This document shows positions 2,973 to 29,833 of a stretch of DNA of 64,000 nt, piece after piece (the stretch's first letter is position 1; each line of letters begins with the position of its first letter). Below the pieces are notes generated by a model. That model was not told the DNA's origin. It did no database searches and saw nothing but the letters and a program-made list of their open reading frames with translations. The DNA comes from Methanothermococcus sp. Ax23 (GTDB taxonomy: Archaea > AGJL01 > Methanococci > Methanococcales > Methanococcaceae): positions 1,280,001-1,344,000 of the forward strand of contig NZ_CP157522.1 of the NCBI RefSeq assembly GCF_049075655.1. Direction: 5' to 3'. Both the position numbers and the translations under genes were made by a program.

Positions 2973-3296
2973 TACGATAAACCGCCGAGAAAGCCAACGA
3001 TTTTAATCGTTATACAAAACATAGTTTTGTAAAATCTCTTATGAGATTGGATGAGAGGCGGACATTATATCGGCTAGTAAGTAGTAAAATATAAATATGT
3101 GAAGATTAGTAGTAAGTAACGCTACCAGTCCAAGTTCTAATGGGTAGGGTTAGTGAAAACTCTACCGCTGGTAGTGGTTGAAAGTGCATAGCGTAGCCCT
3201 GAACCCATTAATGGGTAGGGGTAGTGGGTTTGGCCACCCATGTAGGGTTAAACCCTACTAATGAACCCCACGATTTTAATCGTGGGAGTAGGTCAG
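2973..3296 (+). mobile_element. Non-autonomous MITE derived from the tnpB element family of 20976-22447
   Basis: Left end nearly identical to 20976-21068; right end and omegaRNA nearly identical to 255-360; preceded by TTAT, ends in TCAG; no ORF. Confidence 0.92.
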
Positions 3297-4045
3297 AGAG
3301 ATTTAGCAATTTCTTCCACTTTCTTATATACTTCATTATTTTCATCTATATCAAACAGAGGTTTGCCTACTAAATCATATTTTGATATTTCTTCATTATA
3401 GGGCAATTTCCCTATTAAATTTAACCCCAATTCTTCGGCGTTTTTCTCAACTATATCTTTGGTTTCATCATTTACTTTATTTGCAACAACACATATATCT
3501 TTGAATTTTATTTCGAGGTCATTCGCTAGTTTTTTTATTCTTTTAGCAGTCCCTAACCCTCGCTTTGAAGCATCACTCACCACTATCATGGTATCTACAT
3601 TTTGAGTGGTTCTTCTACTCAAATGCTCCAAGCCTGCTTCCGTATCTATAACCACATAATCATAGGATTTTGCAAGATTATCTATAATCTGCCTTAACCA
3701 GTTATTCACACTACAATAACAACCACTTCCTTCGGGTCTCCCCATAACAAGCAAATCAAAGTTCTCTGTTTCAACCATAATTTCATATATTCTTCCCAGT
3801 AAATAATCCTGTTTTGATATGCCAGAAGGCAATTTATCATCAGCCACTAACTGTTTTAACTCTTCTCTTATATCCCCAATAGTCCGTTCTACTTCAACGC
3901 CAAGAGTTTCGGGGAGATTTGAATCGGGGTCAGCATCAACAACAAGCATATTGTGCGTCTTTTTTGATAATGCTTTTACAAGTAATGTGGAAAACATGGT
4001 TTTACCAGTTCCTCCTTTTCCGCTTATTGCTATTATTTTGGTCAA
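3293..4045 (-). CDS. cooC: CooC/AcsF nickel-insertion ATPase (CO dehydrogenase maturation factor)
   Basis: Deviant Walker A GKGGTGKT, GCYC motif, DTEAGLEH. Confidence 0.92.
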   Translation of the reverse strand: MTKIIAISGKGGTGKTMFSTLLVKALSKKTHNMLVVDADPDSNLPETLGVEVERTIGDIREELKQLVADDKLPSGISKQDYLLGRIYEIMVETENFDLLVMGRPEGSGCYCSVNNWLRQIIDNLAKSYDYVVIDTEAGLEHLSRRTTQNVDTMIVVSDASKRGLGTAKRIKKLANDLEIKFKDICVVANKVNDETKDIVEKNAEELGLNLIGKLPYNEEISKYDLVGKPLFDIDENNEVYKKVEEIAKSL

Positions 4046-4247
4046 ATTATCACCAATTACCTACATATATACATACAAAAAAAGTTTAAGACATATAACG
4101 AATATATTACATTGAACAATATCATCTAAATCAATATATATTATATATTTATTACATAAATATATTGGCAATGAATATATAGGACACACATAAGAATAAT
4201 ATATTTATTTAATAGTCGTTTTTTAAAAATGATATTGGGGGGCTCTT

Positions 4248-7200
4248 ATGTATGAGAGGATGTTGCAAGAAGAACTTTCAAAATTATTTAAAGAATATTG
4301 TGAATTGGATTGGAAAAAGAAATCTGAGGCAGCCCGAATATTAGGGTATATTAATGATGTTAATGAAATTAAGAAAATACAGGAACAAATTATAAAACTA
4401 GCTCAGGATAAAAACTTAGCTACAAGAGTAAATCTAATGAACTCTATAAAGAAGCTCGTTTTAGACCGCCACATTATCAATGAAGATATCTTTGTTTTAC
4501 TCTATTTTTGGGCCAATTCCTTCAACACCACAACATCAGAATTTGCCAAACAAATTATAAACTCCTTAAATGTGAATGTGATTGTCGACTACATCCTCTC
4601 ATTATCCATAAAACTTTATTCTTCCAATCCTTATGAAGTAGCATATGCCATGGCATCCTTGGGATTGATATCAACAGTTACCCCTGAACACTTAACAAAT
4701 ACCCTCCCTGAGATTGTATTAATATCTAACAGTTATAAATACAAGATACTTCAAGTGCTTGCTATTGAAATACTTGAAGAATTTAAAACATTGGATAAAG
4801 AATATCTAATAAGTTCATTTTTTTTAATTTATAATATATATAAAAATAATAAACAGATTGGCGACTTCAATATTGAATCTATGAATGGAAGCGAATTATT
4901 TGAATATATGTTATGTATATATTTTAAAAAAAATGCAAGTAACGAAAATATTTTAAATATAATAACAATGTTGGATTATGTTGATTTACTTACAAAATCC
5001 TTTGCACTGATCACATTATATACTCATGCCGATGTTTTGTATCGGATATTAAAGGAGGATAAGAAATTAAGCAATTACCTGATAGATGAAATAATAAGCT
5101 CTTTTAAAAATCCTGACCGGATGATTAGGCTTTCATCCATGTTTTTGTTTATAAAGTTGATATTCTTTGATAAAATATATATTAAAGATGAATACTTAGA
5201 TATGTTTTTTGACAAAATCCTTGAAAATTTCAATGATAAATATATTGTAAAAGGATTTTCTCTTGAAATATTATACTACCTATTAAAAAATACAGAATCG
5301 AAATATATTAAAAAGAAAGTATCTGAGGTTATTGATAAAATTGATTTAAAAAGTATAATGAATGAAGGACATTTATGCTATTATAATGGGTTATATTTGG
5401 CATATGAATTAAAAAAATATGAATGTTTCTCAGCAACATCTTCTCCTAATTTTAATATGGCTCTTGTGGGGGAATTTAACACATTGGAAACTGTTGAATA
5501 TTATGATTTAATTAAATCTATTAATATATCTGTGAAGCGAAAATACTGGCTTAGTGGATGGTTGGATAGATACTACGCTGGAAAATATTTAGGCAATGCA
5601 ATATATGCAAGACCCGGTTATGCATCCAATATGTTTGATACAATAGACACCCTATTAGGTGATAACAACTATATGGTAAGATGCATTGGAATTTGGATTT
5701 TAAGACTTACCACTGAGTTAGGTATTGAACCGCCAACTGATATTATCATTAAATCAATATCATTGCTTGATGACTGGTTCTATGAATGCAGAATTGAATA
5801 TATGTTATTTTACAACATATTATTAAAAAATTTTCCGCATATTTTGGAAGACAGCAGAATTAAACAAAAACTCATTTCTGCAATAGCCTCAAAACATCTA
5901 ACGGACAGCAATAAACTTGTAAGGAATGTTTGCACAATGATATTAAAAAATAAAGAATTATTATATAGGAATTCAGAAATTGAATTTTTTAAAAATTACT
6001 ATGACTTGTCAGTTCCTGAAAGAATTGAATTACTTGAAAAATATTGGGAAATCCCAGAGCTGAGAAAAGCTGTAATTATGCTCGTTAAAGTAAGATTAAA
6101 ATATTATATTAAAAAAGGAGATTATACTACCATTGAAATGGCTTTAAAAAAAATATTTGATGGGAAACTCCATAAAGAAATAGGTCATATACTGTATGAA
6201 ATTGTACGATTGAAAGAAAAATCTGAAATGGCTAAAAAGATATTAAATGCATTTAAAAACAAATATCCAAAACTTCCAAAAGATTTAGAGAAAACATTAT
6301 TCCATAATATCAATGAACCAATAATTACCATTAGAACCCATAAACTTAAAGAACTATTGTTATTTGTCAAAGAGGGAGTTACAATAAGCTATGAGTTATT
6401 AAATAAGGTTAAAGAGATAGCAATATACGAATGTGTTAGTGAGCGAAACCTAAATCTTGCATTATCTATACTTGGAGAAATAAATGAACTTGAAAGTATG
6501 GCCATAATTAAGGAAAAAAGGGAATTAATAGAATATCTGGAAAATAATCCATTAAATCTTGACAAAATAAAAAGAAAAGATTTGAAAAGATTGGATTGGA
6601 AGGATTATTGTATTAAAATAGCATACATTCCCACGGAAGGAATAATGGATATATTTGCAGAGGATAATGTAAATGAGGTTGTAGAAACAGTTGTATCTCT
6701 ATTGCACTTTGAAGATGTTGTAATTTTAAAGGTAAGAATTATAGATTTATTAATTGAAGAAATTTCCAAAAATGAAGAATTATTAAATATATTGTTGGAT
6801 AATAAAGAAATATTTGCTATATTGTTAAAACTATATTTATCTAAAGGATATAGTTTTTTATCAAAAAAAGCACTAACCTTACTAGAAAAATTATCGCTAA
6901 AAAGAGATAACTGGTTAAGAAGTAATTTAATACATTATTTTAAAAGTAATGATTTTAATTCTCAAAAATCGTTAAATAATATATTATACCTCCTAACTGA
7001 AAATATCTCCACATATGTTAAAATAGAAATTTTGAATTCTATAAAATATGCATTAGAAAATAAATTAATTGAATGTAATAAAGATGCTGCATATACTTTC
7101 GTAGACATTATGATGAATACCGACAGTAATCAGCCATGGACAATATTTAAAAACGCAGTTGATATTATTTTTTCATGTCCGTATATAAAAACTGATGAAA

Positions 7201-7379
7201 AACTTCTAAGTAGCATTGTCGAGAAATTTATAGGTCTTGCGGACATTGTAGAAGAAGGAAAGAAAGACTATATACTCATTTACCTAAAAAAACTATTAGA
7301 AATGAGTGGAGTTAACATTATAGAACTTGATGAGGAGGTTATTGAAAAACTTCTTGAATTTGAAAATAGGAATTTATAA
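4248..7379 (+). CDS. Large HEAT/ARM-repeat (alpha-solenoid) protein, function unknown
   Basis: 1043 aa with recurring HEAT-like segments (LLGDNNYMVRCIGIWIL, LTDSNKLVRNVC, FKNPDRMIRLSS). Confidence 0.7.
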   Translation: MYERMLQEELSKLFKEYCELDWKKKSEAARILGYINDVNEIKKIQEQIIKLAQDKNLATRVNLMNSIKKLVLDRHIINEDIFVLLYFWANSFNTTTSEFAKQIINSLNVNVIVDYILSLSIKLYSSNPYEVAYAMASLGLISTVTPEHLTNTLPEIVLISNSYKYKILQVLAIEILEEFKTLDKEYLISSFFLIYNIYKNNKQIGDFNIESMNGSELFEYMLCIYFKKNASNENILNIITMLDYVDLLTKSFALITLYTHADVLYRILKEDKKLSNYLIDEIISSFKNPDRMIRLSSMFLFIKLIFFDKIYIKDEYLDMFFDKILENFNDKYIVKGFSLEILYYLLKNTESKYIKKKVSEVIDKIDLKSIMNEGHLCYYNGLYLAYELKKYECFSATSSPNFNMALVGEFNTLETVEYYDLIKSINISVKRKYWLSGWLDRYYAGKYLGNAIYARPGYASNMFDTIDTLLGDNNYMVRCIGIWILRLTTELGIEPPTDIIIKSISLLDDWFYECRIEYMLFYNILLKNFPHILEDSRIKQKLISAIASKHLTDSNKLVRNVCTMILKNKELLYRNSEIEFFKNYYDLSVPERIELLEKYWEIPELRKAVIMLVKVRLKYYIKKGDYTTIEMALKKIFDGKLHKEIGHILYEIVRLKEKSEMAKKILNAFKNKYPKLPKDLEKTLFHNINEPIITIRTHKLKELLLFVKEGVTISYELLNKVKEIAIYECVSERNLNLALSILGEINELESMAIIKEKRELIEYLENNPLNLDKIKRKDLKRLDWKDYCIKIAYIPTEGIMDIFAEDNVNEVVETVVSLLHFEDVVILKVRIIDLLIEEISKNEELLNILLDNKEIFAILLKLYLSKGYSFLSKKALTLLEKLSLKRDNWLRSNLIHYFKSNDFNSQKSLNNILYLLTENISTYVKIEILNSIKYALENKLIECNKDAAYTFVDIMMNTDSNQPWTIFKNAVDIIFSCPYIKTDEKLLSSIVEKFIGLADIVEEGKKDYILIYLKKLLEMSGVNIIELDEEVIEKLLEFENRNL

Positions 7380-7415
7380 TTTTTAATATTATGTTATAAT
7401 TTAATATTATTTTAG

Positions 7416-8037
7416 AGAGTGTGTCTAAAATCGAATGATAAATATATACTAATAAAAAAATATGGTGGCAAAAAGTGGATTCTAGAAAATTCTTAAAAAA
7501 CTTTGGAGTTTTGATTACGAAAGGACGTTTATTAATTCAACAAAGTTTCCAAATAATGTAGGTGAATTGGAGTGAGCAAAGCGAACGGAGGGCTATAAAA
7601 ATCCCTTTGGGATTTTCATTCAATCGGTAAGATACATGCTATAACTCGCTACGATTTAGAAAATAAAACATTATATCTCACATCCATGATTAAAAATCAG
7701 ACTTGGAATTTGCTGATGGGAAAGGATATTTTTTGGTGATGGAGAATAGGGAAATAAAAAGACATTGAATAAAATCTTATCGGATTTTATAACCCGCTCT
7801 CTTTGCTCGTGGTTGAACAATATCGTTAAATCCATCTAAACAATAATAAAGAAAACGTAAAGATAGGTAGACATGTAAAGGATTCTTCAGAGCTTTAACC
7901 AATAGATTCAGAGATAAATTAAATACTTCCTTAGTATTAACTACCATCACTCTTATCGCTATAAGAGTTTATATGTACTCGTTAATCATGTTGCTAAGAT
8001 ATACTATATAATACCTGAGCTATCTTAGACACACCCT
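7416..8037 (+). mobile_element. Degenerate IS5-like element or MITE
   Basis: 13-bp inverted repeats AGAGTGTGTCTAA (7416) and TTAGACACACCCT (8025), one mismatch; no intact ORF; family assignment is tentative. Confidence 0.7.
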
Positions 8038-8080
8038 GCCTAATCCATAATGAAAATAAATAAAAAAATGAGATGAAAAC

Positions 8081-8962
8081 ATGGAATGTATAGAATATGA
8101 AATAAAACATGCGATAGAACATATGATGGAAACTAATTATCCGAGAAAAAAATTATGGGATATGGATTCAAAAGTTCCGGAGTTAATAAGAGGAATTAGG
8201 GCAGGAGATGATGCAGTAGTGATAGGAAAAAAGGTTATAAACATGGAAGGTCCCTATCCTTTAAAATTGGGTTCAAAAACTGCCTTAATTCATACATCAT
8301 GCGATGTTGTGGCAATGGGTGCAAAACCATTATATGCCATGGATGCAATTCAGGCGCAGAATGAAGAAGAAATAAAAATGGCAGTAGATGGACTAAAAAA
8401 GCAATCCATAGGTCTAAATATACCTATTGTTGGTGGAAATACACAAACAGAAAAGGAATTAAAATCCTGTGTGAGTGTAGTGGTATTTGGAGAGCTCATA
8501 TGTGATAAGGTAATTACTGATGGCGGAGCTCAGGCTGGAGATACAATAATTATGCTCGGTCATCCTGTGGAAGGAGATATTGGAGGTAGAGTCCAGAAGG
8601 CAAAAAATAAATTTGACACATTTCTGAAAATTTTAGAAAATGATGTGGAAGTCCATGCCTGCAAAGACGCTTCAAGGGGTGGATGGCTTTGTAACATACT
8701 TGAAATGCTTGCAAAGGCAAAAAAAGGTATTAGGATAAATGCAATCCCTTATCCAAGAGCTACAAGATATTTGGGAACTTATCTTGTGTGTATGGATGAG
8801 GATAATTTAAATGACGCCATAAATATAGCAATCGACAACAGATGTCCTATTATTCCATTTGGAAAAATAACAGAGGAAAGAACCTTTAAAATAGGGAATA
8901 AAGAATACATCAGTGAAGAAAAAATGAACAATATTATAAAAGAATTTCCCTATAAATACTAA
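8081..8962 (+). CDS. AIR synthase-related (PurM/ThiL/HypE fold) protein
   Basis: AGDDAVV, DVVAMGAKP, IVGGNT, CKDASRGG motifs. Confidence 0.85.
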   Translation: MECIEYEIKHAIEHMMETNYPRKKLWDMDSKVPELIRGIRAGDDAVVIGKKVINMEGPYPLKLGSKTALIHTSCDVVAMGAKPLYAMDAIQAQNEEEIKMAVDGLKKQSIGLNIPIVGGNTQTEKELKSCVSVVVFGELICDKVITDGGAQAGDTIIMLGHPVEGDIGGRVQKAKNKFDTFLKILENDVEVHACKDASRGGWLCNILEMLAKAKKGIRINAIPYPRATRYLGTYLVCMDEDNLNDAINIAIDNRCPIIPFGKITEERTFKIGNKEYISEEKMNNIIKEFPYKY

Positions 8963-8970
8963 TTTAATAT

Positions 8971-9906: not shown

Positions 9907-9972
9907 TATTGAATCACCCAACGCTATTAAATAAATTATTACTAATTTACCACCTGCAATCTTGGACTTAAT

Positions 9973-14245: not shown

Positions 14246-17200
14246 ATGATAAATACGATATACGATATTTTAAAAGAGAATGGCATCACTGAGCTCAGAC
14301 CTCCACAAAAAAAAGTAATCGAAGGAGGGCTATTAAATAAAAATAAAAATTTTTTAATCTGCATACCTACGGCATCGGGGAAAACACTTATTGGTGAGAT
14401 GGCATTTATAAACCATCTTTTAAATGAGAATAAAAATCCCACAAATAAAAAAGGATTGTTCATTGTTCCTTTAAAGGCACTTGCAAATGAGAAATACGAA
14501 GAATTTAAGGAGAAATATGAAAAATACGGTTTAAAAGTAGCATTGTCCATTGGAGATTTTGATGAAAAAGATGAACTAAGCGGATATGATTTAATAATCA
14601 CGACAGCGGAAAAGCTCGATTCACTGATTAGGCACAATATAGGGTGGATAAATGACGTATCTGTTGTAGTTATAGATGAAATCCATTTAATAGGAGATGA
14701 TGGGAGAGGGGGAACCCTTGAAATTCTACTTACAAAACTGAAAAGCAAATACGACACCCAAATAATTGGACTATCTGCCACCATAGGAAATCCCGAAGAG
14801 TTTGCCAAATGGCTAAATGCTGAGCTGGTTATGGACGAGTGGAGACCTGTTGAATTAAGAAAGGGAGTAGGGTATGACGACAAAATCATATTTATTGATG
14901 AGGATGGAAATGTCATAGAGGAATACGTTATTAATGGAACATCTAAAAACAGCATGTTTAATATTGTAGTGGATAGTGTTTTAAAGGACGGCTCATGCCT
15001 GATATTTTGCAATTCAAAGAGAGGGGCAGTTAATGAAGCAAAAAAATTAAATTTGAAAAAATATTTATCAGCTGATGAAGTAGCGGAGCTCCGAAATTTA
15101 AAAGAGGAAGTCCTAATGGCACTTGACCCGCCAACAGAAACCTGCAAAACCCTTGCGGAATGTATTGAAAGGGGTGTAGCATTCCATCATGCAGGTTTAA
15201 CCTACGAACAGCGGAAAATTGTTGAAGATGGATTCAGAAAAAAGCTGATAAAGGTAATTTGTTGCACTCCGACACTCTGTTTAAATGCAAATACTGAGAT
15301 ATTACAAGAAAGTGGGTTTAAAAAGATTACAGAATTGAATAAAAATGAAAAGGTATTTGCATTGTGTGGAAATAAAATAAAACCGGTGGATTGTTGGAAA
15401 GTCCATAAGACCCCGCAACATGAGTATAATATTGTTGTAAAAACAGCAAATGGGCTAAAAATTACCACAACTCCTAATCATTTGTTCTTAGTTAAAAAAG
15501 GAAAAGATACTTGTGAAAAAGAAGCAAAGGATTTAAAAATAGGGGATTATGTGGCTACTACTGATAAAATAGTAGTTGAAGAAAGAGATATCGATTTATC
15601 CTATGGGGACATTTATTTCATTGGATATTTTATAGGGGATGGATATACTGGCGTTATTGAAAAAAATGTATTTAGGGGCAGTCCAGATATTGCATTTAAT
15701 CCAAAATCCTCGCCAAATTTCGACGACTCCAAATTACATAAAAAATACTTCTTAAAGCATAGGGAAATGGAAGGTGTATCTCATTATATATATTCAAAAA
15801 AACTAAGGAAAGTATTCAACAAATTGAACATGCTAACCAAGAATAACAAGAATATTGATACATTTTACAATCTTCCATTGGAAAAATTTTCATACTTTAT
15901 TGCAGGGTTGTTTGATAGTGATGGATACATTAATGCCAATAGAAAGGAAATTGAATTCGATTCAATATCGGAAAATCTAATCAAAAAACTACAATTGGGA
16001 TTATTGAGGTTTGGAATACATAGCACCATTAGAAAAAGAAAAGGAAAAGTTATGAAACTTGACAAAACCTTCGGGTTTTGTAAGTCAGCGAATCCAAAGG
16101 ATTCGCTTCGATCACCAACGAATTATAAAGAATATAAAAGTAGGGACATTTATAAACTAATAATTGGTGATTTTATAAGTGTAAAAAGATTTTATGAAAA
16201 TATTCCACTGAGGCACAAGGAAAAAAGAAGAAAATTGGAGGAAATCGTAAAAAGTAAGGAAATTGCTAAAATGTGGTGTGATTGTGGATTTAGCACTGAT
16301 TTAACTATGTTTAAGCCGAGAACAGAAAGTCAGAGGAACTTGAATAAAAAGCGTATAAACTTGCTTTTTGAACTATTAAATGGGAAAAAATTGATTATGA
16401 ATTACAAGAGCTATTATTCAAAGAGAAAGAATTCTCATTTTGAATTCATAACAAGAGAAAATGTGGGAGGAAATAAGAAAGGAGTATATTATTCCCTAAA
16501 TAATAAAGGAAAGATTTTAATGAATCTTCTTAATAAAAATATAAAAAATAAAGAGAATTTAGAAGAAATGTATGATTTCTTAACAAATCTTGAAAAATGT
16601 CCAATTTGTGGTAAGCCACTCTACAAAGAAATAAGATACAGTTGGAAAAAAGAATATTATGATGAAGATATTTATTGGGATGCAATTAAAGAAATTAAAA
16701 AAATAAAAGTAAATGACAAATATGCTTATGACATAGAACTGCCTGATGATGGGACAAATGACCATTATGTTGTGGCGAATGGATTTATTGTGCATAACTC
16801 TGCGGGACTAAATTTACCTTGTAGAAGGGCAATCGTAAGGGATTTAAAGAGATTTTCCAGCAGAGGTATGGCCCCAATTCCAAAAATGGAAATTCATCAG
16901 TGCATTGGAAGAGCTGGACGGCCAAATTTAGACCCCTATGGTGAAGGAATAATATATGTAAGCAATAGGGAGAACCCTGAAAGCATTGAAAATGCAAAAA
17001 ACTATTTAATTGGAAATGTGGAGGAAATTTACTCAAAACTATCTAATCAGAAGGTTTTAAGAACTCATATACTTGGGTTAATTACCACAGGTGAGGTTAA
17101 AAACAAAAATGATTTAGAGGAATTTATAAAAAATACATTCTATGCTCATCAATATCAAAATACTGAAAAAATTTTGGAAAATATTGATGAAATAACCAAT

Positions 17201-18061
17201 TTTTTAGAGAAAAATGGATTTATACAGTTAAATTATGGTTCAAATGATAATAATAACAATAATAATGTAAAGATGCTCGTATTGGATAACAATTCATTGA
17301 CTGTTAAATCAAGATACGAGGGCGAAAATATATATTATACTATCACACCCCTTGGAAAGAGGGTTTCGGAGCTCTACATAGACCCACTAAGTGCAGAGAT
17401 TATTATAGATGGATTGAAGGAGCTCCATAAAAAAACATTAAATTCAGCAAGTCCAAAAACTATGGATTATTATATTTTTTATATACTATATATAATATCA
17501 AAAACCACCGAAATGCAGCCAGCTTTAAGAGTAAAAAAATTTGAAGAGGAGGATTTAATTTATGAGATGATAAATTTGGATATGGGCGTAGATATGAACG
17601 ATATATCTTTGGAAAATTTAGAATATTTTAAAAATGCCAAAATGTTCTATGATTGGATTAATGAAGTTCCTGAGGAAAAGATTTTGGAGAAATACAACAT
17701 TGAGCCGGGAATTTTACGATACAAGGTAGAACAATCTAAATGGATGATTCATTCTGCAAAAGAAATATTTGATTTGCTTGATATTGAAAATAAATTCATA
17801 AGGGACTGTTTAAATGATTTGGAGATAAGAATAGAATATGGTGCAAAACAGGATATCATAGAACTCCTAAAAATAAAACATATTGGTAGGGTCAGAGCTC
17901 GAACATTATATAATTCAGGTATAAAAAATGTAAGGGATATCGTTAATAACCCTAAAAAAGTCATTAATTTATTGGGGGAAAAAATAACAAAGAAAATTTT
18001 AGAGGAACTGGGTGTGGATGTTAAATTTGGTCAGATGAAACTTTCAATGTATGATATGTGA
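14246..18061 (+). CDS. hel308: Hel308/Hjm SF2 DNA helicase containing an intein
   Basis: PTASGKT, DEIH, SAT, FHHAGL, QCIGRAGRP motifs; motif V TPTL|SAGLNLP is split by the intein. Confidence 0.95.
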   Translation: MINTIYDILKENGITELRPPQKKVIEGGLLNKNKNFLICIPTASGKTLIGEMAFINHLLNENKNPTNKKGLFIVPLKALANEKYEEFKEKYEKYGLKVALSIGDFDEKDELSGYDLIITTAEKLDSLIRHNIGWINDVSVVVIDEIHLIGDDGRGGTLEILLTKLKSKYDTQIIGLSATIGNPEEFAKWLNAELVMDEWRPVELRKGVGYDDKIIFIDEDGNVIEEYVINGTSKNSMFNIVVDSVLKDGSCLIFCNSKRGAVNEAKKLNLKKYLSADEVAELRNLKEEVLMALDPPTETCKTLAECIERGVAFHHAGLTYEQRKIVEDGFRKKLIKVICCTPTLCLNANTEILQESGFKKITELNKNEKVFALCGNKIKPVDCWKVHKTPQHEYNIVVKTANGLKITTTPNHLFLVKKGKDTCEKEAKDLKIGDYVATTDKIVVEERDIDLSYGDIYFIGYFIGDGYTGVIEKNVFRGSPDIAFNPKSSPNFDDSKLHKKYFLKHREMEGVSHYIYSKKLRKVFNKLNMLTKNNKNIDTFYNLPLEKFSYFIAGLFDSDGYINANRKEIEFDSISENLIKKLQLGLLRFGIHSTIRKRKGKVMKLDKTFGFCKSANPKDSLRSPTNYKEYKSRDIYKLIIGDFISVKRFYENIPLRHKEKRRKLEEIVKSKEIAKMWCDCGFSTDLTMFKPRTESQRNLNKKRINLLFELLNGKKLIMNYKSYYSKRKNSHFEFITRENVGGNKKGVYYSLNNKGKILMNLLNKNIKNKENLEEMYDFLTNLEKCPICGKPLYKEIRYSWKKEYYDEDIYWDAIKEIKKIKVNDKYAYDIELPDDGTNDHYVVANGFIVHNSAGLNLPCRRAIVRDLKRFSSRGMAPIPKMEIHQCIGRAGRPNLDPYGEGIIYVSNRENPESIENAKNYLIGNVEEIYSKLSNQKVLRTHILGLITTGEVKNKNDLEEFIKNTFYAHQYQNTEKILENIDEITNFLEKNGFIQLNYGSNDNNNNNNVKMLVLDNNSLTVKSRYEGENIYYTITPLGKRVSELYIDPLSAEIIIDGLKELHKKTLNSASPKTMDYYIFYILYIISKTTEMQPALRVKKFEEEDLIYEMINLDMGVDMNDISLENLEYFKNAKMFYDWINEVPEEKILEKYNIEPGILRYKVEQSKWMIHSAKEIFDLLDIENKFIRDCLNDLEIRIEYGAKQDIIELLKIKHIGRVRARTLYNSGIKNVRDIVNNPKKVINLLGEKITKKILEELGVDVKFGQMKLSMYDM
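15278..16798 (+). mobile_element. Intein (507 aa) with LAGLIDADG endonuclease in Hel308
   Basis: Starts CLNANT, block B TPNHLF, GYFIGDG and AGLFDSDG, ends VVANGFIVHN before Ser. Confidence 0.93.
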
Positions 18062-20921: not shown

Positions 20922-20975
20922 AAATAAAATAAAAAAATAAAAAATATAATAAGAGAGGTAAAAGCTTTATATTAT

Positions 20976-22447
20976 TACGATAAACCGCCGAGAAAGCCAA
21001 CGATTTTAATCGTTATACAAAACAAGGTTTTGTAAAATCTCTTATGAGATTGGATGAGAGGCGGACATCATTTTTTTTATATGCTCCACTACATAATATA
21101 TGAGTGTAATTAGAATAATAGCATATATATAAATTTGGTGAATTCCATGCAAGTAACCAGAGTGCTGACAATAAACCTAACCAGAAGTTTGAGTAATGAA
21201 CAATTAACAATCATAAACCATTTAACCTACTCGGCATCAAAACTCTGGAATGTATCAAACTACGAAGTAATGCAACGAAACATTAAACCAAATAAAGCAG
21301 ATGTTCAAATGAAAAACAACTTCTGGTTTAAAAATCTTCATTCACAGTCAGCACAGGCAGTATGTCAAAAACTCACAATAGCATGGGATAACTTTTTTAA
21401 ACAACACACTAAAAGACCACGATACCAACCAAAAGATGGACACTTTCCAGTAAAATGGAAAAAACAAGGTTTCAAAATCATAAACAATAAATTAAGATTA
21501 TCATTATCTAAACAAACTAAAAACTATCTCAAAGAAAAGCATGGTATTAAGTCCAAGTATTTATGGGTAGAGTTATCGAAAACTCTACCGCTTGATACCA
21601 TGCAGGTTAAAGAAGTTGAAATAGTTCCACATAAAATCTACGGGATAACTTATTATATGCTTCATTTAATCTATAAGAAACCAGTAATTCAAGAACCTAT
21701 CAAAGAAGGTAATATATTAAGTATTGATTTAGGAATTAAGAATTTAGCAACCGCAGTAATTAATACGGGCAGTGCGATAATCTACGATGGAAGAAGGTTA
21801 ATTTCTAAATTTCGGTGGTTTGCTAAAAGTAAAGGAAAAATCCAATCTACCCTAACAAAGCAAGAGTTAAAATATAATAAACGATTATCCCGCTTAACAG
21901 TAAAGGAGAAAAACTACACTAAGGATTATCTACATAAAATAAGTAAAATGATTATCGATTTTGCAGTAGATAATAAAGTTTCAAGGATTGTAATCGGCGA
22001 GTTAAACAAAGGCATTTCAAGTATTGACATTGGAGATAGGGTTAATCAGCAATTGCATAGAATACCTTTTGGTAGGTTAGTAAGTATGATAATGTATAAA
22101 GCAGAAGAAAAGGGATTAACAGTAGAACAGGTTAATGAATCTTATACTTCTCAAACTTGTAGTAATTGTGGTGTGGTTAAAAAGAGCAATAGGAAGTATA
22201 GGGGTTTGTATGTGTGTAGTGAGTGTGGCATGGTTTTGAATGCAGACATTAACGGGGCTTTGAATATTTTAAAAAAAGTATCGCATAAGGTAGCCCTGAA
22301 TCTCCTAAACGGAGATAGGGGTAGTGGGCTTGGCAACCCATGTAGGGTTAGACCCTGCTAAAATTAGACGAAATCACTTCGTGATTTCGTTGCTCGCTTA
22401 CTACCGTAAGCGAGAACCCCACGATTTTAATCGTGGGAGTATGTCAG
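20976..22447 (+). mobile_element. IS200/IS605 (IS1341-type) tnpB-only element, complete copy
   Basis: TTAT before the left end, subterminal hairpins AACGAT-TTTA-ATCGTT and CCCACGAT-TTTA-ATCGTGGG, terminal TCAG; no tnpA; boundaries from comparing copies (about 1 nt uncertainty). Confidence 0.9.
21147..22361 (+). CDS. tnpB: TnpB RNA-guided nuclease
   Basis: RuvC-I SIDLG, RuvC-II region VIGEL, zinc finger, RuvC-III NADING; GGTGA RBS. Confidence 0.93.
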   Translation: MQVTRVLTINLTRSLSNEQLTIINHLTYSASKLWNVSNYEVMQRNIKPNKADVQMKNNFWFKNLHSQSAQAVCQKLTIAWDNFFKQHTKRPRYQPKDGHFPVKWKKQGFKIINNKLRLSLSKQTKNYLKEKHGIKSKYLWVELSKTLPLDTMQVKEVEIVPHKIYGITYYMLHLIYKKPVIQEPIKEGNILSIDLGIKNLATAVINTGSAIIYDGRRLISKFRWFAKSKGKIQSTLTKQELKYNKRLSRLTVKEKNYTKDYLHKISKMIIDFAVDNKVSRIVIGELNKGISSIDIGDRVNQQLHRIPFGRLVSMIMYKAEEKGLTVEQVNESYTSQTCSNCGVVKKSNRKYRGLYVCSECGMVLNADINGALNILKKVSHKVALNLLNGDRGSGLGNPCRVRPC

Positions 22448-22467: not shown

Positions 22468-22494
22468 ATAAATTCCAAAATATGGAGGGGTTTT

Positions 22495-23418: not shown

Positions 23419-23454
23419 TTATTCTAAATTTTTCTTATATTTATATTATTTCAA

Positions 23455-23910: not shown

Positions 23911-24020
23911 TTTATTTCCTCCGTGTATATTGTATATTAATTATAGTATAGACAAAAATATAATTTATATTATATATACTATTTCATTAGGATTACTATT
24001 ATAATATTAATGGTGAAATT

Positions 24021-24644
24021 ATGAAAACAGTGCATTTTGACAGTATTTCTGCATTGATAGTAGATGATAAAAAACTGGATTATACAGGAAGTGAAATAGA
24101 ACCCCTTTGGGCATTTAAAAACTTCAATATTCAAAAGGATAGTATAATCGCATTTAACGGAGCTCTCAATGTGGGCATCAAAAACATGAAGGATTTGAAG
24201 GATGTTAAAGAAGAATCAAAATATGGGGATATTTTAATAAAATCATCAAATGCCATAAACTTCATAGTGGAGCATTTTGATAACCCTGATTTAAAGATGA
24301 TATATTTAAGACAGAGGATTTTAGTATCCATAGCAAAGGAAATAATAGAAGAAATAACCAATAAACGATTAAAAAGAAGTGGGGATGATTTATATTATAA
24401 AGATGGTAAATTATCCGTATGTATAGCTTGCCGTGGAATATCCTCAGCAAAGATACACCTCGGTATAAATGTGTCAAATGTGGGAGCTCCCGAGTATGTT
24501 AATACCTCTTCATTGGAGGATTTGGGAATTGATATAAATGATGATATGAACATAATCAGTTTAATGAAAAAAATAGCAACCAAATATGCGGAAGAAATGG
24601 ATAAAATAGAAAAGGATATGAGAAAGACATTGTATTTAGTTTAG
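24021..24644 (+). CDS. DUF366 family protein
   Basis: YTGSEIEPLWA, FIVEHFD, RSGDDLY, IHLGINV. Confidence 0.8.
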   Translation: MKTVHFDSISALIVDDKKLDYTGSEIEPLWAFKNFNIQKDSIIAFNGALNVGIKNMKDLKDVKEESKYGDILIKSSNAINFIVEHFDNPDLKMIYLRQRILVSIAKEIIEEITNKRLKRSGDDLYYKDGKLSVCIACRGISSAKIHLGINVSNVGAPEYVNTSSLEDLGIDINDDMNIISLMKKIATKYAEEMDKIEKDMRKTLYLV

Positions 24645-25523
24645 TTCTCTTCTTTTTCTTAATATCAAATACATAATTAAAGATATTGCAATTAGTGTTG
24701 TGGATATTGGGATTGGTGTTATTATAGGAGTTCCTCCCCCCTCCCCCGCCACAATATTCCCCAACAATCTTTCCAAGTTTTCAGGAGCTTCTGAACTCAC
24801 ATTAATAGTATCGCCAATAGTGGTTCCGTTGAATCCATTTATAATATCGGAAGTATTACCTATCAATGGAGCAAAGAATACAACACCAGTGTCATTAAAC
24901 TCCTCAGCAGTCATTGTTCCATTGTATAACTTTTCAATTTCCTCTGGCGTTAATGTCTTATTGAATATACCTACTCCAGATACATTTATATCAGCACCCC
25001 ATATCTCTTTCCACGGTCTATTGGCTATCTCTAAACCAGAGTTAATATATGTCGTATCATTCCTAAAATTTGAAGTTAAAGTTCCAGTTTTGAAATCAGT
25101 TTTACTATAAACTTCTTCTCCATCTTTATATATTTTAACGGTACCAGTGTTTCCGTCATAAGTTAAAACAATATTTTGATATTCATCGGGCGTTAGTTGA
25201 ACATCAGTTTCAATCCAATACCACGAATCGCCTACTCCATCATTATTTGTATCTACATTAATAGCATACTTTATTTTGTTATCTGTGGTCAATGCAACCT
25301 CATAAGTATTTTCCTGATTCACTATAATATCATAATCAGTGTTTTGATTGTCAGTTGGTGCAACCCAGAAAGAAATAGAAAGCTGGTCGCTTCCTGTCAG
25401 TTGTGTAACATCCTGAGAACCATCGTATCTTAATGTAGAATTATCTCCCCAATTGGAAAGGTCACCATACGCAGTGTTAAAAAATAATACCAAAATGCCC
25501 AATAATGTTATAGCTTTTTTCAT
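24636..25523 (-). CDS. Secreted LamG/concanavalin-like protein with PIP-CTERM-like anchor
   Basis: Signal peptide; SISFWV, IVLTYDG, KIYKDG, IFNKTLTPEEI; C-terminal TPIP + hydrophobic helix + RKRR. Confidence 0.8.
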   Translation of the reverse strand: MKKAITLLGILVLFFNTAYGDLSNWGDNSTLRYDGSQDVTQLTGSDQLSISFWVAPTDNQNTDYDIIVNQENTYEVALTTDNKIKYAINVDTNNDGVGDSWYWIETDVQLTPDEYQNIVLTYDGNTGTVKIYKDGEEVYSKTDFKTGTLTSNFRNDTTYINSGLEIANRPWKEIWGADINVSGVGIFNKTLTPEEIEKLYNGTMTAEEFNDTGVVFFAPLIGNTSDIINGFNGTTIGDTINVSSEAPENLERLLGNIVAGEGGGTPIITPIPISTTLIAISLIMYLILRKRRELN

Positions 25524-25616
25524 AACCACCACCGAATGTTCAGTGAGATGTACAATATATATTTTGATAATTGTAAGTTAGTTATAATATCGCATACAGT
25601 GGAAGGTTATATTTAA

Positions 25617-26633
25617 CTATTTCTCATTTGTTTCAATCTTAAATCCATTATTATTCCCCTTTGTAATTATTACATCCCCCTCAATACCATTTTTATCAAA
25701 GAATTCTTTGGAGGTTTCGACTACCTTTTGTATGCCCTCTTTTCCATTGCATATGGAATAAATCGTCGGTCCAAAACTTGACAGTCCGCTATATGACACT
25801 TTTTGAAGAGCTCCTAAAAGTTCCTTAACAATATCTTTTTGGAGCTCCACTTCAACTTTTTTAAATCCAATATATTGTAATTCATTTACAACTTCCCCAA
25901 AGGATTTTATGTCATTTTCAATTACTGCGGGCATCATTTTCATTAATATTAAATGACACATCCTTTGAGTTTCGTTTAATGGTATTGGGCAGTATTTTTT
26001 AAAAATATCTATCTCTTTATCGCCGTAAATATTTTCTCCTTTTGGAATGGTTAAAACAACATCCCAATTAAAATCATGTCTAAACAGAAGGGGCGGAGCT
26101 CTCACATTTTTTGATGCTGATGAAGGTCTAAAATCCTCTTTATCCTTTCCTTTTCCAAAGGTATGACCTCCGTCAATTATAAATCCTCCTTTTTCAAATG
26201 CATTAACTCCAATGCCTGATGTTCCTCCCCTACCTGTAATATTTGAAAGAGTTTTTCCATCCAATTCCTTATTATATATCATTGATATTAATTTTCCAGT
26301 AGAAAGTGCCATTTGAGTTCCACTTCCTAAACCACTGTGTTGAGGTATTATATTTTTTATTTTTAAATAAATACCCTCCTCCCCAATGTAGTTTAAAATT
26401 TTCTTTGAAATATTGTATATTCTTTTTTCTATCTCATTTTTATTGATATTGTTAATATTATTCAATATATTTTTGTCAAATTCTATCTCAATATCTGAGC
26501 TCCCCCTCCCTTCAACTATAAAATTTGGATGGTTTAATGTAATACCTATACCTCCATCTACCCTGCCGATACTACCGTTCAAATCTATAAGCCCTAAATG
26601 AATCCTTGAAGGGGATATTATTGTTAATTTCAT
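25617..26633 (-). CDS. mptG: Beta-ribofuranosylaminobenzene 5'-phosphate synthase (methanopterin biosynthesis)
   Basis: PSRIHLGLIDL, HSGLGSGTQ GHMP motif, GRGGTSGIG. Confidence 0.9.
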   Translation of the reverse strand: MKLTIISPSRIHLGLIDLNGSIGRVDGGIGITLNHPNFIVEGRGSSDIEIEFDKNILNNINNINKNEIEKRIYNISKKILNYIGEEGIYLKIKNIIPQHSGLGSGTQMALSTGKLISMIYNKELDGKTLSNITGRGGTSGIGVNAFEKGGFIIDGGHTFGKGKDKEDFRPSSASKNVRAPPLLFRHDFNWDVVLTIPKGENIYGDKEIDIFKKYCPIPLNETQRMCHLILMKMMPAVIENDIKSFGEVVNELQYIGFKKVEVELQKDIVKELLGALQKVSYSGLSSFGPTIYSICNGKEGIQKVVETSKEFFDKNGIEGDVIITKGNNNGFKIETNEK

Positions 26634-26659
26634 AATATTCACCGAAAAAAGAAAATTTA

Positions 26660-27124
26660 TTAAATTAATGCTTCTATTAAATCTCCTCTTGTAATTATGC
26701 CTACAAGTTCTCCATTTTTAATTACAGGTAGCCTTTTAATTTTATTTTTAGTCATTACTTCAGCTGCTTCATTTATTGAAGCTTCTGGTGAAATGACAAT
26801 TACATCCTTTGTCATTATATCTTTTACCTTTGTTTTTAATGCCTTTTCAATATCCTCCCTAAATTCTTCTATTTTTAACGTTGTTTTTAAAGGTAGTTCA
26901 ATTAAATCAAAAGGGGATGGCAATACAATATTAAATTTTTCGTCATGGGTTGTAAGAGTTTTTATAATATCACTTTCGGATATAATCCCAACAAGATTTC
27001 TATCATCGTCTATTACAGGAGCTCCGCTAATCTTATGTTCTCTAAATAATTTAATTACATCCCTAATATCGTTATTTTGATTAACAACAATGGGTTTTTT
27101 CATTACAGAATCTACATTAACCAT
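26660..27124 (-). CDS. CBS domain protein
   Basis: Two CBS repeats (ISGAPV..GIISESD; IKRLPV..GIITRGD). Confidence 0.9.
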   Translation of the reverse strand: MVNVDSVMKKPIVVNQNNDIRDVIKLFREHKISGAPVIDDDRNLVGIISESDIIKTLTTHDEKFNIVLPSPFDLIELPLKTTLKIEEFREDIEKALKTKVKDIMTKDVIVISPEASINEAAEVMTKNKIKRLPVIKNGELVGIITRGDLIEALI

Positions 27125-27235
27125 AAAATCACCAAATGATAATTATAATAATTTTATATTTATAATATAAAAAACTACGATAATATAATAAATTATAGGT
27201 ATAAATATATATGACATTCTTTCAATATAAACCTG

Positions 27236-28423
27236 GTGAAAATAATGCATATAAGAATTAACAATGGTATCAATGAGTGTGATATTTACTTAATAGGCAC
27301 AGCTCATGTTTCAGGCGAGAGTATAAAGGAAGTTGAAAGAGCCATAACTGACATAGACCCTGATTTAATAGCTGTTGAACTGGATGAGGATAGATTTTTT
27401 GCTATCACAAACGATAATCTCAATAAAGCTAATGGTAAAAATAACATCGATATATTAAAATTAATAAAGGAGGGGAATGTAGGTCTTTTTTTGGTTCATA
27501 CGATTTTAGCAAATTTTCAAAAGGATATTGGGGAGAAGTTTGGTATAAAACCAGGCAGTGAAATGAAAAAGGCAGTGGATTTAGCCATAATATACAATAA
27601 ACCAATATCTCTAATAGATAGGCCCATAAATATTACATTGAAGCGTGCATTAAAAAGCATGAGTTTAAAGGAAAAATTAAGCTTTTTATATGGAATTTTC
27701 GAGGATAAAGACGGCATGGAATTGGATGAAAAATCGTTAAATGAAATGGTGAATAATGCAGAGGATTTAATCCATGTATTAAAAGAAGTATCCCCTTCAA
27801 TATATGAAGTTCTCGTAGATGAAAGGGATAAATTTATGGCAAAAAACATTTTTGAAATTAGCAAAGGGAAAGAAAGAATATTGGTGGTTGTGGGGGCAGG
27901 TCATTTAAAAGGAATAGCCAATTATTTAAAAAAGCTTGAAAAAAATGAAATAGATATAAATTTAAAGGAATTAATGGAGATAAAAAAAGGAAAAAATTAT
28001 TTTAAAATGGTATTCTCAGTAATGATATTGTGTATTATATTATATGGATTTTATTCAATATCCTCAAATCCCGAAGCCCTAAAAAAACTAACTATTGATT
28101 GGATTCTTATAAATGGTAGTTTGTCTGCACTAGGGGCAGTTCTTGCCCGTGGGAAGATTCCATCAATTATTTCGGCATTTCTTGCGGCACCAGTCACATC
28201 TTTGATTCCAGTAATTGGAGCAGGTTATGTTGCAGGATTTGTTGAATTGAAATATAGGGGCATTACAACAGAGGATATCGACGAATTGTTTAAATCCGAT
28301 GATTTAAAAAGGTTAATGAATAACAATGTGATAAGGGTTTTAATGGTTGCAACACTTTCCAGTATTGGAAGTGCCATTGGGACATTTTATTTTGTTCCAG
28401 GATTTTTAGGACATTTGTTTTAA
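27236..28423 (+). CDS. TraB/PrgY family protein
   Basis: IGTAHVS, AVELD, ERDKFMA, VVGAGH and C-terminal membrane helices. Confidence 0.9.
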   Translation: MKIMHIRINNGINECDIYLIGTAHVSGESIKEVERAITDIDPDLIAVELDEDRFFAITNDNLNKANGKNNIDILKLIKEGNVGLFLVHTILANFQKDIGEKFGIKPGSEMKKAVDLAIIYNKPISLIDRPINITLKRALKSMSLKEKLSFLYGIFEDKDGMELDEKSLNEMVNNAEDLIHVLKEVSPSIYEVLVDERDKFMAKNIFEISKGKERILVVVGAGHLKGIANYLKKLEKNEIDINLKELMEIKKGKNYFKMVFSVMILCIILYGFYSISSNPEALKKLTIDWILINGSLSALGAVLARGKIPSIISAFLAAPVTSLIPVIGAGYVAGFVELKYRGITTEDIDELFKSDDLKRLMNNNVIRVLMVATLSSIGSAIGTFYFVPGFLGHLF

Positions 28424-29833
28424 CATATTCTGCGAGAAGTTTGATAAATTCCTTCGGAATTTATAAATGTCTTCGCTACGCTCAGACATCCCCATCCGTA
28501 AGGGTGGGGATGAATCGCAGGCATTATTTATATATGGCATAAGTGGCAACATACTATTTATAAATAATCAAACTGTGATGCCAATGATAAGGACTCATAA
28601 GTTCCGCCTTTATCCTTCAAAGAGTATCCAAATAACAATAGAGGAGCATCTAAATATATGTAGATACCTCTATAACTATCTTTTGGAGCAGAAAACTAAA
28701 AATCCGAAACTAAATAAAATGGATACTCAAAAACTAATCACAGAACATAAGAAGGAGAATCCTGAACTTAAAAAAGTCCATTCGAAAGTCCTTCAAATGG
28801 TAAATAATAAACTTTGGGGGAACCTCAAAGCATTAGGCAAACTAAAACAGAACGGTCATAAGGTAGGTAAATTAAGATTTAAATCATCAAGGAACAGATA
28901 TAAAACATTAGAATACAATCAATCAGGTTTCAAGATTAAGGATAACAAACTTCACCTATCTAAAATAGGTGAAATTCCCATAAAACTACACAGAAACATT
29001 AAAGGGAAGACTAAAAACGTAATCCTAAAAAAAGAACCTACGGGCAAGTGGTTTGCTTTCTTTCAAGTGGAAGAAGAACCTAAACCACTACCTAAAACTA
29101 ACAAGGTTGTAGGTATCGATTTAGGAATCGATGGTTATACCATCGATTCAGATGGTAATAAATTCGAAAATCCTAAATTCATAGATAGAACTTTGGATAA
29201 AATAAAGAGAGTCCAAAAAAACATATCTAGAAAAGTAAAAGGTTCGAACAACTACAAAAAGACCAAACTAAAACTTATCAGGATTTACGATAAACTAAAC
29301 AATCAGAAAAATGATTTTCTACATAAACTATCAAGATATTACATAAATAACTACGATAAAATAATTTTAGAAGACTTAAATATAAAATCGATGGTTGAAA
29401 ATGGAAAATGTAAGACCTTAAACCGTCATATCCTTGACGGTTCTTGGCGTAAATTCATAAATCTACTTCTCTACAAGGCGGAGGGTGCTGGTAGAGAAGT
29501 AATATTAGTAAATCCCCATTATACTTCTAAAAAATGTTCCAACTGCGGGCATGTTGTTAAAGACTTAAAACTTTCAGATAGAATCTTTTTTTGTCCCAAC
29601 TGCGGTTGGAAATCTGACAGGGACTACAATGCGTCCCTAAATATATTAAAGTCAGGGCTGGGAGAGTCCGTTGTGCCTGTTGAGGGGGGACCTCTACTCA
29701 GAGTTATACCTTATATAAAGGTAATCTCTGGGCAAGTATCCCCTATGAGTCAGGAAGCCTTGCCCGAAGGGCGAGGGCTACGAAAACCGAAAGGTTTTCG
29801 TTTAACCCCGTCCGTAAGGGCGGAGTAATTCAC
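28424..29833 (+). mobile_element. IS200/IS605 tnpB-only element, second family
   Basis: TTTAA (28419-28423) before the left end; hairpins TCCCCATCC-GTAA-GGGTGGGGA and CCGTCC-GTAA-GGGCGG; terminal TTCAC; single copy so ends are inferred. Confidence 0.85.
28584..29828 (+). CDS. tnpB: TnpB RNA-guided nuclease
   Basis: KFRLYP N-terminus, GIDLG, ILEDL, zinc finger, DRDYNAS: catalytic D-E-D intact. Confidence 0.95.
   Translation: MIRTHKFRLYPSKSIQITIEEHLNICRYLYNYLLEQKTKNPKLNKMDTQKLITEHKKENPELKKVHSKVLQMVNNKLWGNLKALGKLKQNGHKVGKLRFKSSRNRYKTLEYNQSGFKIKDNKLHLSKIGEIPIKLHRNIKGKTKNVILKKEPTGKWFAFFQVEEEPKPLPKTNKVVGIDLGIDGYTIDSDGNKFENPKFIDRTLDKIKRVQKNISRKVKGSNNYKKTKLKLIRIYDKLNNQKNDFLHKLSRYYINNYDKIILEDLNIKSMVENGKCKTLNRHILDGSWRKFINLLLYKAEGAGREVILVNPHYTSKKCSNCGHVVKDLKLSDRIFFCPNCGWKSDRDYNASLNILKSGLGESVVPVEGGPLLRVIPYIKVISGQVSPMSQEALPEGRGLRKPKGFRLTPSVRAE

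Follow-up and report, generated by a model that had tools for sequence, protein, structure and literature searches.

Short hairpin-forming repeats of the kind considered here are already known, as small palindromic repeats in genes, as tagged repetitive extragenic palindromic (REP) sequences and as mitochondrial hairpin elements. The archaeal palindromic repeats called MJREs reportedly average ~100 nt, with 141 in one genome, and we know of no description of MJREs nested in the ends of IS200/IS605 insertion sequences (ISs) or of filled and empty MJRE junctions. In Methanocaldococcus jannaschii they occur fused in frame into protein genes (Suyama 2005, cited in PMC2229807 and PMC2996958), and REPs are described as being cut by the transposase RAYT at a GTAG tag (PMC3733652, PMC3116915). 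Here we analyze a 64,000-nt stretch of the genome of the vent archaeon Methanothermococcus sp. Ax23 (the window; C1:1280001-1344000 of a 1.67-Mb genome with 31.9% G+C, two contigs and 98.9% completeness), in which the ends of IS200/IS605 elements carrying tnpB hold short inserts made of two adjacent hairpins. We think it likely, with a probability of roughly 0.7, that the inserts belong to a family of very small mobile DNA units, non-coding and non-autonomous, that is present across Methanococcales.

The units resemble MJREs, as far as descriptions can be compared, in belonging to the same archaeal order and in being dispersed palindromic repeats, some of them in frame in protein genes; they differ in size, at ~48 nt against the ~100 nt reported for MJREs, and in number, with at most 13 matches in any genome of the sister-family genus g5 against the 141 MJREs. 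Like REPs and their inverted doublets (REPINs), as these are described in PMC3116915 and PMC3733652, they are short palindromes with a tetranucleotide tag at one end that form hairpins in single-stranded DNA and lack classical inverted ends. REPs are likewise described as inserting into or beside existing copies and, in some cases, within genes, and they include a CGTC-tagged class without a dedicated transposase (PMC3733652). However, the unit tag is T[TC]AG rather than GTAG or CGTC and is analogous in position only; a unit consists of two different tandem hairpins rather than an inverted REP doublet; and the host is an archaeon with no RAYT/Y1 gene in its genome. In relatives, units do not flank the tnpA genes among the matches listed.

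Other systems share parts of this design. The small dispersed repeats (SDRs) of Nostoc, said to be 21-27 nt long, to show compensatory changes and to nest in miniature inverted-repeat transposable elements (MITEs) and in each other, are cyanobacterial single hairpins for which an RNA route has reportedly been proposed. Rickettsia palindromic elements (RPEs) are 100-150 nt in size. They too are palindromic repeats in frame in unstructured parts of housekeeping proteins (PMC2996958, PMC3733652), but they are bacterial and are described as CGTC-tagged (PMC3733652). The mitochondrial double-hairpin elements of Allomyces (Paquin et al. 2000, described in PMC2800124), for which an RNA route has been suggested, are according to that account two adjacent stem-loops of a few tens of nucleotides that apparently move between close relatives, leave no flanking duplications and occupy spacers and tolerant parts of genes. 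The likeness is one of design only – the Allomyces elements reside in eukaryotic organelle genomes and have no sequence relation to our units, for which the evidence points to DNA. The GC clusters of yeast mitochondria (GC42) are described as 42-nt hairpins of constrained structure in an AT-rich genome, with module shuffling and strain-variable copy number, but also with a putative AG target duplication (PMC4478555) that the units lack. Palindrome-associated transposable elements and MITEs derived from IS200/IS605 likewise insert without target duplication, but the unit hairpins are unlike the resident end hairpins and no fixed target word lies outside them; classical MITEs have the terminal inverted repeats and target-site duplications that the units do without.

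A first-pass annotation made from the letters alone had placed such inserts at five of the seven visible tnpB-element ends. The count proved correct, and all five inserts read exactly as it gave them (Table 1). Each folds, as single-stranded DNA, into two adjacent hairpins, with z-scores of -3.5 to -7.0 against 200 dinucleotide shuffles. Gene assignments throughout rest on crude open reading frame (ORF) calls.

Table 1. Double-hairpin units and associated features. Positions are window positions unless prefixed with C1; the last three columns describe the four shared insertions (I1 to I4) of element family 1.
Feature	Position	Strand	Description	Full-length copies carrying it	Pairwise divergence (copies compared)	Left / right flank divergence
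Insert A1	3012..3048	+	37-nt double hairpin in a tnpB-less MITE (2969-3296), where it splits the left-end hairpin in the 3' arm; junction ambiguous by 2 nt (TT); fold z -5.4			
Insert A2	21015..21051	+	same 37-nt insert as A1, in the left end of a full-length tnpB element (~20966-22447); fold z -6.6			
Insert B (= I4)	22363..22413	+	51-nt alpha-type unit between tnpB stop codon and right-end hairpin; tag ATTAG, 10-bp hairpin with TTC loop, linker, 8-9-bp hairpin; fold z -7.0			
Insert C	28440..28489	+	49-nt delta-type unit directly before the left-end hairpin of the second tnpB element; A/T-rich hairpin with TTC loop, then 6-bp stem with TTCGCTACGCTC loop; fold z -4.9 (28441-28489)			
Insert D	29758..29807	-	48-nt reverse-orientation unit directly before the right-end hairpin of the second tnpB element; junction ambiguous by 2 nt (CC); fold z -3.5 (29760-29807)			
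Beta-type double-hairpin unit	16062..16107	+	in frame in the LAGLIDADG (intein) part of a helicase ORF; fold z -6.1			
Single first-type hairpin	61987..62009	+	A-tract stem, TTC loop, without second hairpin; model positions 7-25 only, E 0.0035			
tnpB, element family 1	21135..22361	+	Pfam OrfB_IS605, Cas12f1-like_TNB			
tnpB, element family 2	28467..29828	+	Pfam OrfB_IS605, Cas12f1-like_TNB, HTH_OrfB_IS605			
Empty site for insert B	321..340	+	right end of neighbouring full-length copy c1278k, running into the window start			
Empty site for insert B	3255..3270	+	right end of MITE			
I1 (= insert A)			37 nt, within 3' arm of left-end hairpin	8/9	0.032 (29)	0.090 / 0.185
I2			47 nt, within tnpB after ~codon 76	7/9	0 (7)	0.066 / 0.022
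I3			48 nt, within tnpB, in frame	3/9	0 (3)	0.047 / 0.080
I4 (= insert B)			51 nt, between stop codon and right-end hairpin	3/9	0.006 (22)	0.085 / 0.074
I2-split tnpB copies	C1:130455-131960, 893015-894565, 1074440-1075925, 1124950-1126495		full-length			
I2-split tnpB copies	C1:1278835-1280365, 1498240-1499735, 1504230-1505830		full-length; right end of the first = window 1-360			

The tnpB element at window 20966-22447 (element family 1) has nine full-length copies, which we aligned to establish whether the inserts are insertions. Five indel blocks of at least 8 columns were found, one of them a 15-nt block private to one copy; the blocks common to more than one copy are exactly four, and all four are double hairpins (37, 47, 48 and 51 nt; I1 to I4 in Table 1). 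Insert A is, as had been proposed, one and the same insert at its two window sites, where it splits the left-end hairpin: the copy without it (c431k) has a perfect 8-bp left-end hairpin mirroring the right-end hairpin. This intact hairpin occurs in six copies genome-wide, against 32 matches to insert A, three of which lie at the left end in a related IS family. Insert B has 22-23 matches genome-wide. Its reported absence from two neighbouring right ends was confirmed, and 6/9 paralogous copies lack it. Homologues of family 1 in other genera are 68-73% identical and several adjoin a tnpA gene; B was absent in 7/7 of their right ends that could be reached. The homologue in genome G033 carries a different, delta-type unit ~70 nt upstream of the B site, in the 3' part of tnpB (L075, downstream of C1:1413305), an independent insertion into a comparable target, the presumed guide-RNA scaffold region.

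The second tnpB element (family 2, ~28418-29833) has three full-length copies in this genome, each with a different unit – before (insert C), inside or after the left-end hairpin. The site of insert C is empty in the two other copies. Insert D is present in 3/3 copies here, but its site is empty in 3/6 right ends reached in two relatives (G012a, G012b and G010d), and we therefore regard D as a 48-nt insertion. Thus C and D, which had been called inserts from the usual layout of such ends, now have empty counterparts. Since each of the inserts has an empty homologous site in a paralogue or a related genome, comparison of these sites identifies them as insertions rather than ancestral end structures.

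The empty sites read CTAAA/GAACC, GGA/GATGG, CAA/TAGCA and AAGCC/CCTTC and have no word in common; the tag arrives with the unit, and no fixed target tetra- or pentanucleotide is left outside. Junction ambiguity ranges from 0 to 5 nt. We found no target duplication at the B or D junctions or at that of a kinase gene described below, and no terminal inverted repeats, the 5' and 3' ends of the unit not being complementary. A right-end fragment with insert B at C1:1141773-1141857, a locus also found in RNA-library contigs of run X1, has MITE homology that ends exactly at the 5' border of the unit.

Main-type units measure ~48 nt (47-51 nt) and share a layout of a 5-nt single-stranded tag, a 9-10-bp A-tract hairpin with a C-G closing pair, a TTGCT or TTACT linker and a second hairpin. 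The first loop is TTC, sometimes GAA or AAA. DNA mini-hairpins of the C-GAA-G type are stable. The second hairpin takes two forms, a perfect 8-9-bp stem or a short stem with the loop TTCGCTnnCGCTC, a motif already singled out by the first-pass annotation. The tag is ATTAG, ATCAG or GTTAG in 15/15 aligned alpha units, and ATTGA, ATTAA or GTTAA in weaker members. Loops occur in both orientations, and one first hairpin is seen in combination with five or more different second hairpins.

We built a covariance model from eight of the units. In this genome 150 of its 572 candidates were scored, which gave at least 120 matches at E<=1, at least 79 of them full-length at E<0.015. Insert B matches at 60 bits and insert D at 36.7 bits on the minus strand (29758-29806); in insert C the model matches the first hairpin only (28444-28464, E 0.009), and the sister units in the two other family 2 copies are full matches. 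B, D and, by way of its first hairpin and its relatives, C are one family as the model delimits it, which upholds for them the shared design first proposed for all five inserts; insert A, which the model does not find, is a similar but separate 37-nt type. Among 40 related Methanococcales genomes, 22 have matches at E<=0.001. Related genomes hold anywhere from 0 to 69 copies, and this genome has the most units of those compared; a genus of the sister family (g5) has matches in 13/17 genomes, with at most 13 per genome.

The stems of these units covary strictly. The comparison covers 35 distinct sequences, taken from this genome and from eleven relatives, in an alignment that was fitted to the model and so leans towards structure. 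Of 520 stem cells, 98.7% form a standard pair, and 14 of the 17 stem pairs show changes on both sides; cells changed on both sides number 89, against two changed on one side. None of 500 shuffles attained the observed covariation, and no slid register comes near it. G·U (G·T) pairs fill only two of the 520 cells, which speaks for a structure that is important in DNA, or in both strands, and not in a single RNA; the occurrence of loops in both orientations and of variously combined hairpins agrees with a structure at the DNA level. These sequence comparisons support the view that the units are kept together by compensatory stem changes. With the filled and empty sites, they bear out the earlier proposal of a small structure-defined mobile unit.

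The chromosome as a whole holds 153 adjacent double hairpins against 10 in one second-order Markov simulation, and 328 perfect hairpins (stem of at least 8 bp with at least 3 G/C) against ~94 in another single simulation, scaled from 800 kb. General searches returned little: repeat-finding over the whole window gave AT-rich palindromes only; in Rfam only a tRNA attained the gathering score in the window, and eight unit loci gave two sub-threshold matches at chance level. A strict pattern scan of public collections, which returned far less than the model search of genomes and so is no measure of range, found two records among genome_contigs (metagenome-assembled genomes of Methanothermococcus and Methanocaldococcaceae) and none in viral_contigs. 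The 48-nt I2 sequence occurs exactly in two other genera, at 1501-1548 of L021 (G034) and at 1501-1548 and 1938-1985 of L023 (G017) – in a common but different context, and in G017 twice, 437 nt apart. This suggests horizontal transfer, with another element as the carrier.

Units also lie in genes outside ISs. A thiamine pyrophosphate (TPP) enzyme gene carries a 48-nt unit in an inter-domain linker that is lacking in a 90%-identical orthologue in G003, and in a GHMP-kinase gene the insert measures exactly 48 nt (16 codons), is missing from 8/8 orthologues and has a junction with zero ambiguity. The reading frame stays open in these two genes, in a protein-kinase-like gene, in a distant intact tnpB and in an intein; in the distant tnpB the tag reads ATTAT, so that no stop arises. 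Antisense units lie in open ORFs of an ATP-grasp gene and a DDE transposase gene. The in-frame units bear out a resemblance to MJRE-like palindromes with coding potential. Several orthologues of the TPP enzyme (G012, G007, G008, G002 and G018) have long N/K/Y-rich low-complexity insertions in another linker (alignment columns ~230-300), so linkers of this enzyme seem generally permissive. The intein unit lies within the LAGLIDADG domain of the intein in a 1271-aa DEAD/Hel308-like helicase ORF (14246-18061) and is thus one mobile element inside another. A suspected end hairpin of a third tnpB family turned out to be another unit, within the tnpB ORF of that family.

We next considered whether the units are concentrated in IS200/IS605 ends, as first claimed. 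Since an insert is multiplied whenever its carrier is, IS copies make up most of the raw count, and the numbers of I4 (22), I1 (~30) and I2 (7) are mostly hitch-hiking. We therefore grouped 79 matches into 45 flank-defined clusters and, as D was split in two, counted ~44 events. Repeats with at least three copies make up 5.0% of the genome, and the DNA within 250 nt of them 8.8% of the genome and 25.2% of the DNA outside long ORFs; 16/44 events fall inside such repeats or no more than 250 nt away (p=5e-7 relative to the genome as a whole). Within elements most events lie inside or beside subterminal hairpins (I1, I4, C and D), and further units lie inside and after the family 2 left-end hairpin here and in G003, G010 and G012. 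Across this genome and its 40 relatives, unit and tnpB matches correlate (Spearman rho 0.78), as does their presence ([[16,7],[3,15]], Fisher p=0.0013), though this overstates the link, since the genomes share ancestry and the count includes units carried inside IS copies. The claim therefore stands in part: subterminal clustering and the tnpB correlation keep a real IS link alive, but the share of events at repeats does not differ significantly from the 25% expected of non-ORF DNA (p=0.066).

Units in spacers form arrays of up to ~10 hairpins. At C1:560100-560450, directly downstream of a 575-aa ORF (an aminoacyl-tRNA synthetase by eye only, without a family search), a decayed family 2 left end is overgrown by ~10 consecutive hairpin units. 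A hairpin with the stem GCAAC/GTTGC around an A/T-rich spacer, repeated seven times at 112-nt spacing at C1:869162-869834, is a tandem array unrelated to the units. Eight unit clusters have no common flanking gene, their neighbours being unrelated housekeeping ORFs (judged by eye from the first 90 residues, without a family search). Of the standalone units, 16 are on the plus strand and 19 on the minus; cumulative GC skew and gene-strand bias switch sign too many times for replichores to be delimited.

The inserts appear, from their divergence, to be younger than the elements that carry them (Table 1), with flank variants starting 2-6 nt from the junctions. I2 breaks tnpB into two ORFs in 7/9 full-length copies, so that the suggestion that units may disable transposons gains a concrete case; the family 1 tnpB in the window is one of only two copies without this frameshifting insert. 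The seven I2-bearing genes have no other stop or frameshift, and their mutual ratio of nonsynonymous to synonymous divergence (dN/dS) is 0.10-0.25. The simplest reading of these sequences is that I2 recently entered tnpB genes that were already diverged and functional, either through renewed insertion at exactly one site or through conversion of short tracts between the mosaic copies. Inactivation would then be very recent, or else the insert is bypassed in some way, such as a -1 shift at an A-AAA run in the unit. Metatranscriptome contigs on C1:1263301-1282900 have zero depth in the bin with the 47-nt insert. The full-length copies are mosaic: copies c893k and c1504k have a synonymous divergence (dS) of 0 before the insert and 0.21 after it, and c130k and c1074k show the reverse, which indicates frequent recombination or gene conversion between IS copies.

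Our best reading is that the units are a REP- and MJRE-like, DNA-level, non-autonomous hairpin element. Units occupy tolerant DNA – tnpB-only IS ends and ORFs, MITEs, an intein, variable enzyme loops and intergenic spacers – and a unit landing in an IS multiplies along with it. A nicking-and-joining enzyme, supplied in trans and only intermittently, would recognize the tag and hairpin on single-stranded DNA at replication forks and copy the unit into other single-stranded, hairpin-rich DNA. We infer a DNA-level process that depends on single-stranded hairpins, which would be needed for propagation, because the covariation is strictly Watson-Crick, G·T pairs are nearly absent and both loop orientations are found. 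The units resemble REPs in several ways: a tag beside a hairpin, junctions free of duplication, a preference for the hairpins of IS200/IS605 elements and occurrence together with those elements. The most likely source of the enzyme would be a TnpA (Y1) of the IS200/IS605 elements with which the units travel, a tentative proposal to which we give somewhat less than even odds; copying by the host through template switching or flap processing comes only slightly behind, and other routes take the remainder.

Several observations weigh against this reading, some of them against its TnpA part in particular. The resident HUH enzyme that had been anticipated was not found: a PF01797 profile search that matched in control genomes detected no Y1-HUH transposase or RAYT in this genome, and only 6/23 unit-bearing genomes have a match (17/23 have none). 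No unit adjoins a tnpA gene among the matches listed in relatives, the hairpins of the units do not look like those at the ends of either tnpB family, and a freely varying stem sequence is awkward for an enzyme that reads sequence. On the other side, this genome has 21 tnpB (PF07282) matches and some 30 MITE derivatives with no tnpA match, so its tnpB elements are either stranded or were mobilized by an enzyme since lost; because these tnpB-only elements and MITEs must have been moved by a vanished TnpA, its absence today is weak counter-evidence. More generally, the Markov control is one simulation only, the tendency towards repeats falls short of significance within non-ORF DNA, insert A escapes the covariance model, and low insert divergence can also be explained by short-tract gene conversion among the mosaic IS copies. 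No insertion event was caught: three genome-like sequencing runs near-identical to this genome show no filled/empty differences on C1:1263301-1282900, and both standalone units in this 19.6-kb stretch are unchanged across them. The only joint at a unit in sequencing runs skips 50 nt at the I3 site with GT between (X13, X14) at depth 20-24, ~4x single-copy depth, and we read it as paralogous copies without I3 rather than as a strain polymorphism.

The rival that survives best, although as a full account we consider it rather unlikely, needs no dedicated enzyme: the double hairpin would stall replication and the nascent strand would take another unit as template before switching back, or host structure-specific nucleases would cut and re-ligate a hairpin flap, in either case copying a unit into other single-stranded DNA rich in hairpins. 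This would suit a genome without Y1 transposase or reverse transcriptase, junctions without duplication or inverted ends, a 5-nt ATTAG repeat at the junctions of two units (with a partial one at I2), and inserts beside existing hairpins and each other, as in the arrays at C1:560100-560450 and 364980-365290; both loop orientations, the varied combination of first and second hairpins and the lack of a common gene at the eight clusters fit as well. Yet inserted lengths are near-constant (47, 48, 48, 48, 48, 49 and 51 nt) with ends fixed within ~2 nt, so a defined unit fits better than patches set by microhomology, and the kinase junction has no microhomology at all. By itself this rival would leave the correlation with tnpB-rich genomes unexplained.

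We regard as unlikely a bolder possibility, that the units are self-sufficient 'homing hairpins' which re-insert precisely at the same site of diverged paralogous IS copies without any of the known kinds of transposase. It is prompted by insert divergence of 0-0.6% against 2-8.5% in flanks that vary 2-6 nt from the junction.

It is less probable still that the units are functional hairpins selected by the host, such as binding sites or signals for transcript ends or stability, that spread by recombination or gene conversion. The strict conservation of structure, the many units directly downstream of genes and the frequent conversion shown by mosaic IS copies would agree with this, and REPs are thought to serve such roles (according to PMC3733652). 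But units lie inside coding regions of unrelated genes in both orientations, which are not places for terminators or binding sites; they have broken tnpB in 7/9 copies; their copy number runs from 0 to 69 among related genomes; and a single-copy gene without a filled paralogue cannot have received its unit by gene conversion.

An RNA-level element, whether a mini-intron or a hairpin RNA copied back to DNA, is very improbable. It would account for the two tnpB halves that remain open under a dN/dS of 0.10-0.25 in seven copies despite a 47-nt insert, and an RNA intermediate has been proposed for the mitochondrial double-hairpin elements on the ground that they lack flanking duplications (PMC2800124). 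The open halves are also explained by an insert younger than the copies (0 vs 0.066/0.022), the fungal elements reportedly stay in their transcripts (PMC2800124), and this genome has no reverse transcriptase match. The near-absence of G·U pairs speaks against RNA, as does the frame kept in intact ORFs, where the two host-gene inserts are exactly 48 nt, as is I3, and one copy's tag is altered so that no stop arises; the frame-kept units argue against removal as archaeal bulge-helix-bulge introns, and a folded insert leaves only tag and linker free. That the hairpins are ancestral IS200/IS605 end parts (TnpA or omegaRNA structures) lost by some copies is scarcely credible, for although most copies carry A (8/9 full-length; 32 matches against six intact hairpins), the filled form splits a left-end hairpin that is perfect and matches the right-end hairpin when empty, B is missing from every homologous right end reached in other genomes, the same units lie in unrelated single-copy genes, and copies of one element carry different units at different positions.

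Literature searches returned no description of these Methanococcales units beyond citations of Suyama 2005, though the supplementary species lists of PMC3733652 might include archaeal repeats. The features that seem new are a unit of exactly 48 nt together with its junctions, stems that covary strictly by Watson-Crick pairing, units nested in the ends and ORFs of IS200/IS605 elements and inactivating tnpB, and an order-wide distribution tied to tnpB.

How very small palindromic repeats move is a long-standing question for transposase-less REPs, RPEs, MJREs, mitochondrial hairpin elements and GC clusters alike. This genome is unusually clean material for it, with exact filled and empty junctions in single-copy genes and paralogous transposons, Watson-Crick covariation, no Y1 or reverse transcriptase, and a statistical tie to tnpB-bearing IS200/IS605 elements. 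Were the units homing hairpins, they would be the smallest mobile element known in archaea and would have sterilized tnpB in 7/9 otherwise intact copies, making them in effect a parasite or silencer of RNA-guided transposon nucleases. Work on TnpB and omegaRNA is concerned as well: in this order, many natural elements have additional hairpins in the guide-RNA scaffold region or a frameshifting insert in tnpB, both of which annotation and mining pipelines would misread. For the host, 16-codon insertions tolerated in enzymes are a source of protein length variation.

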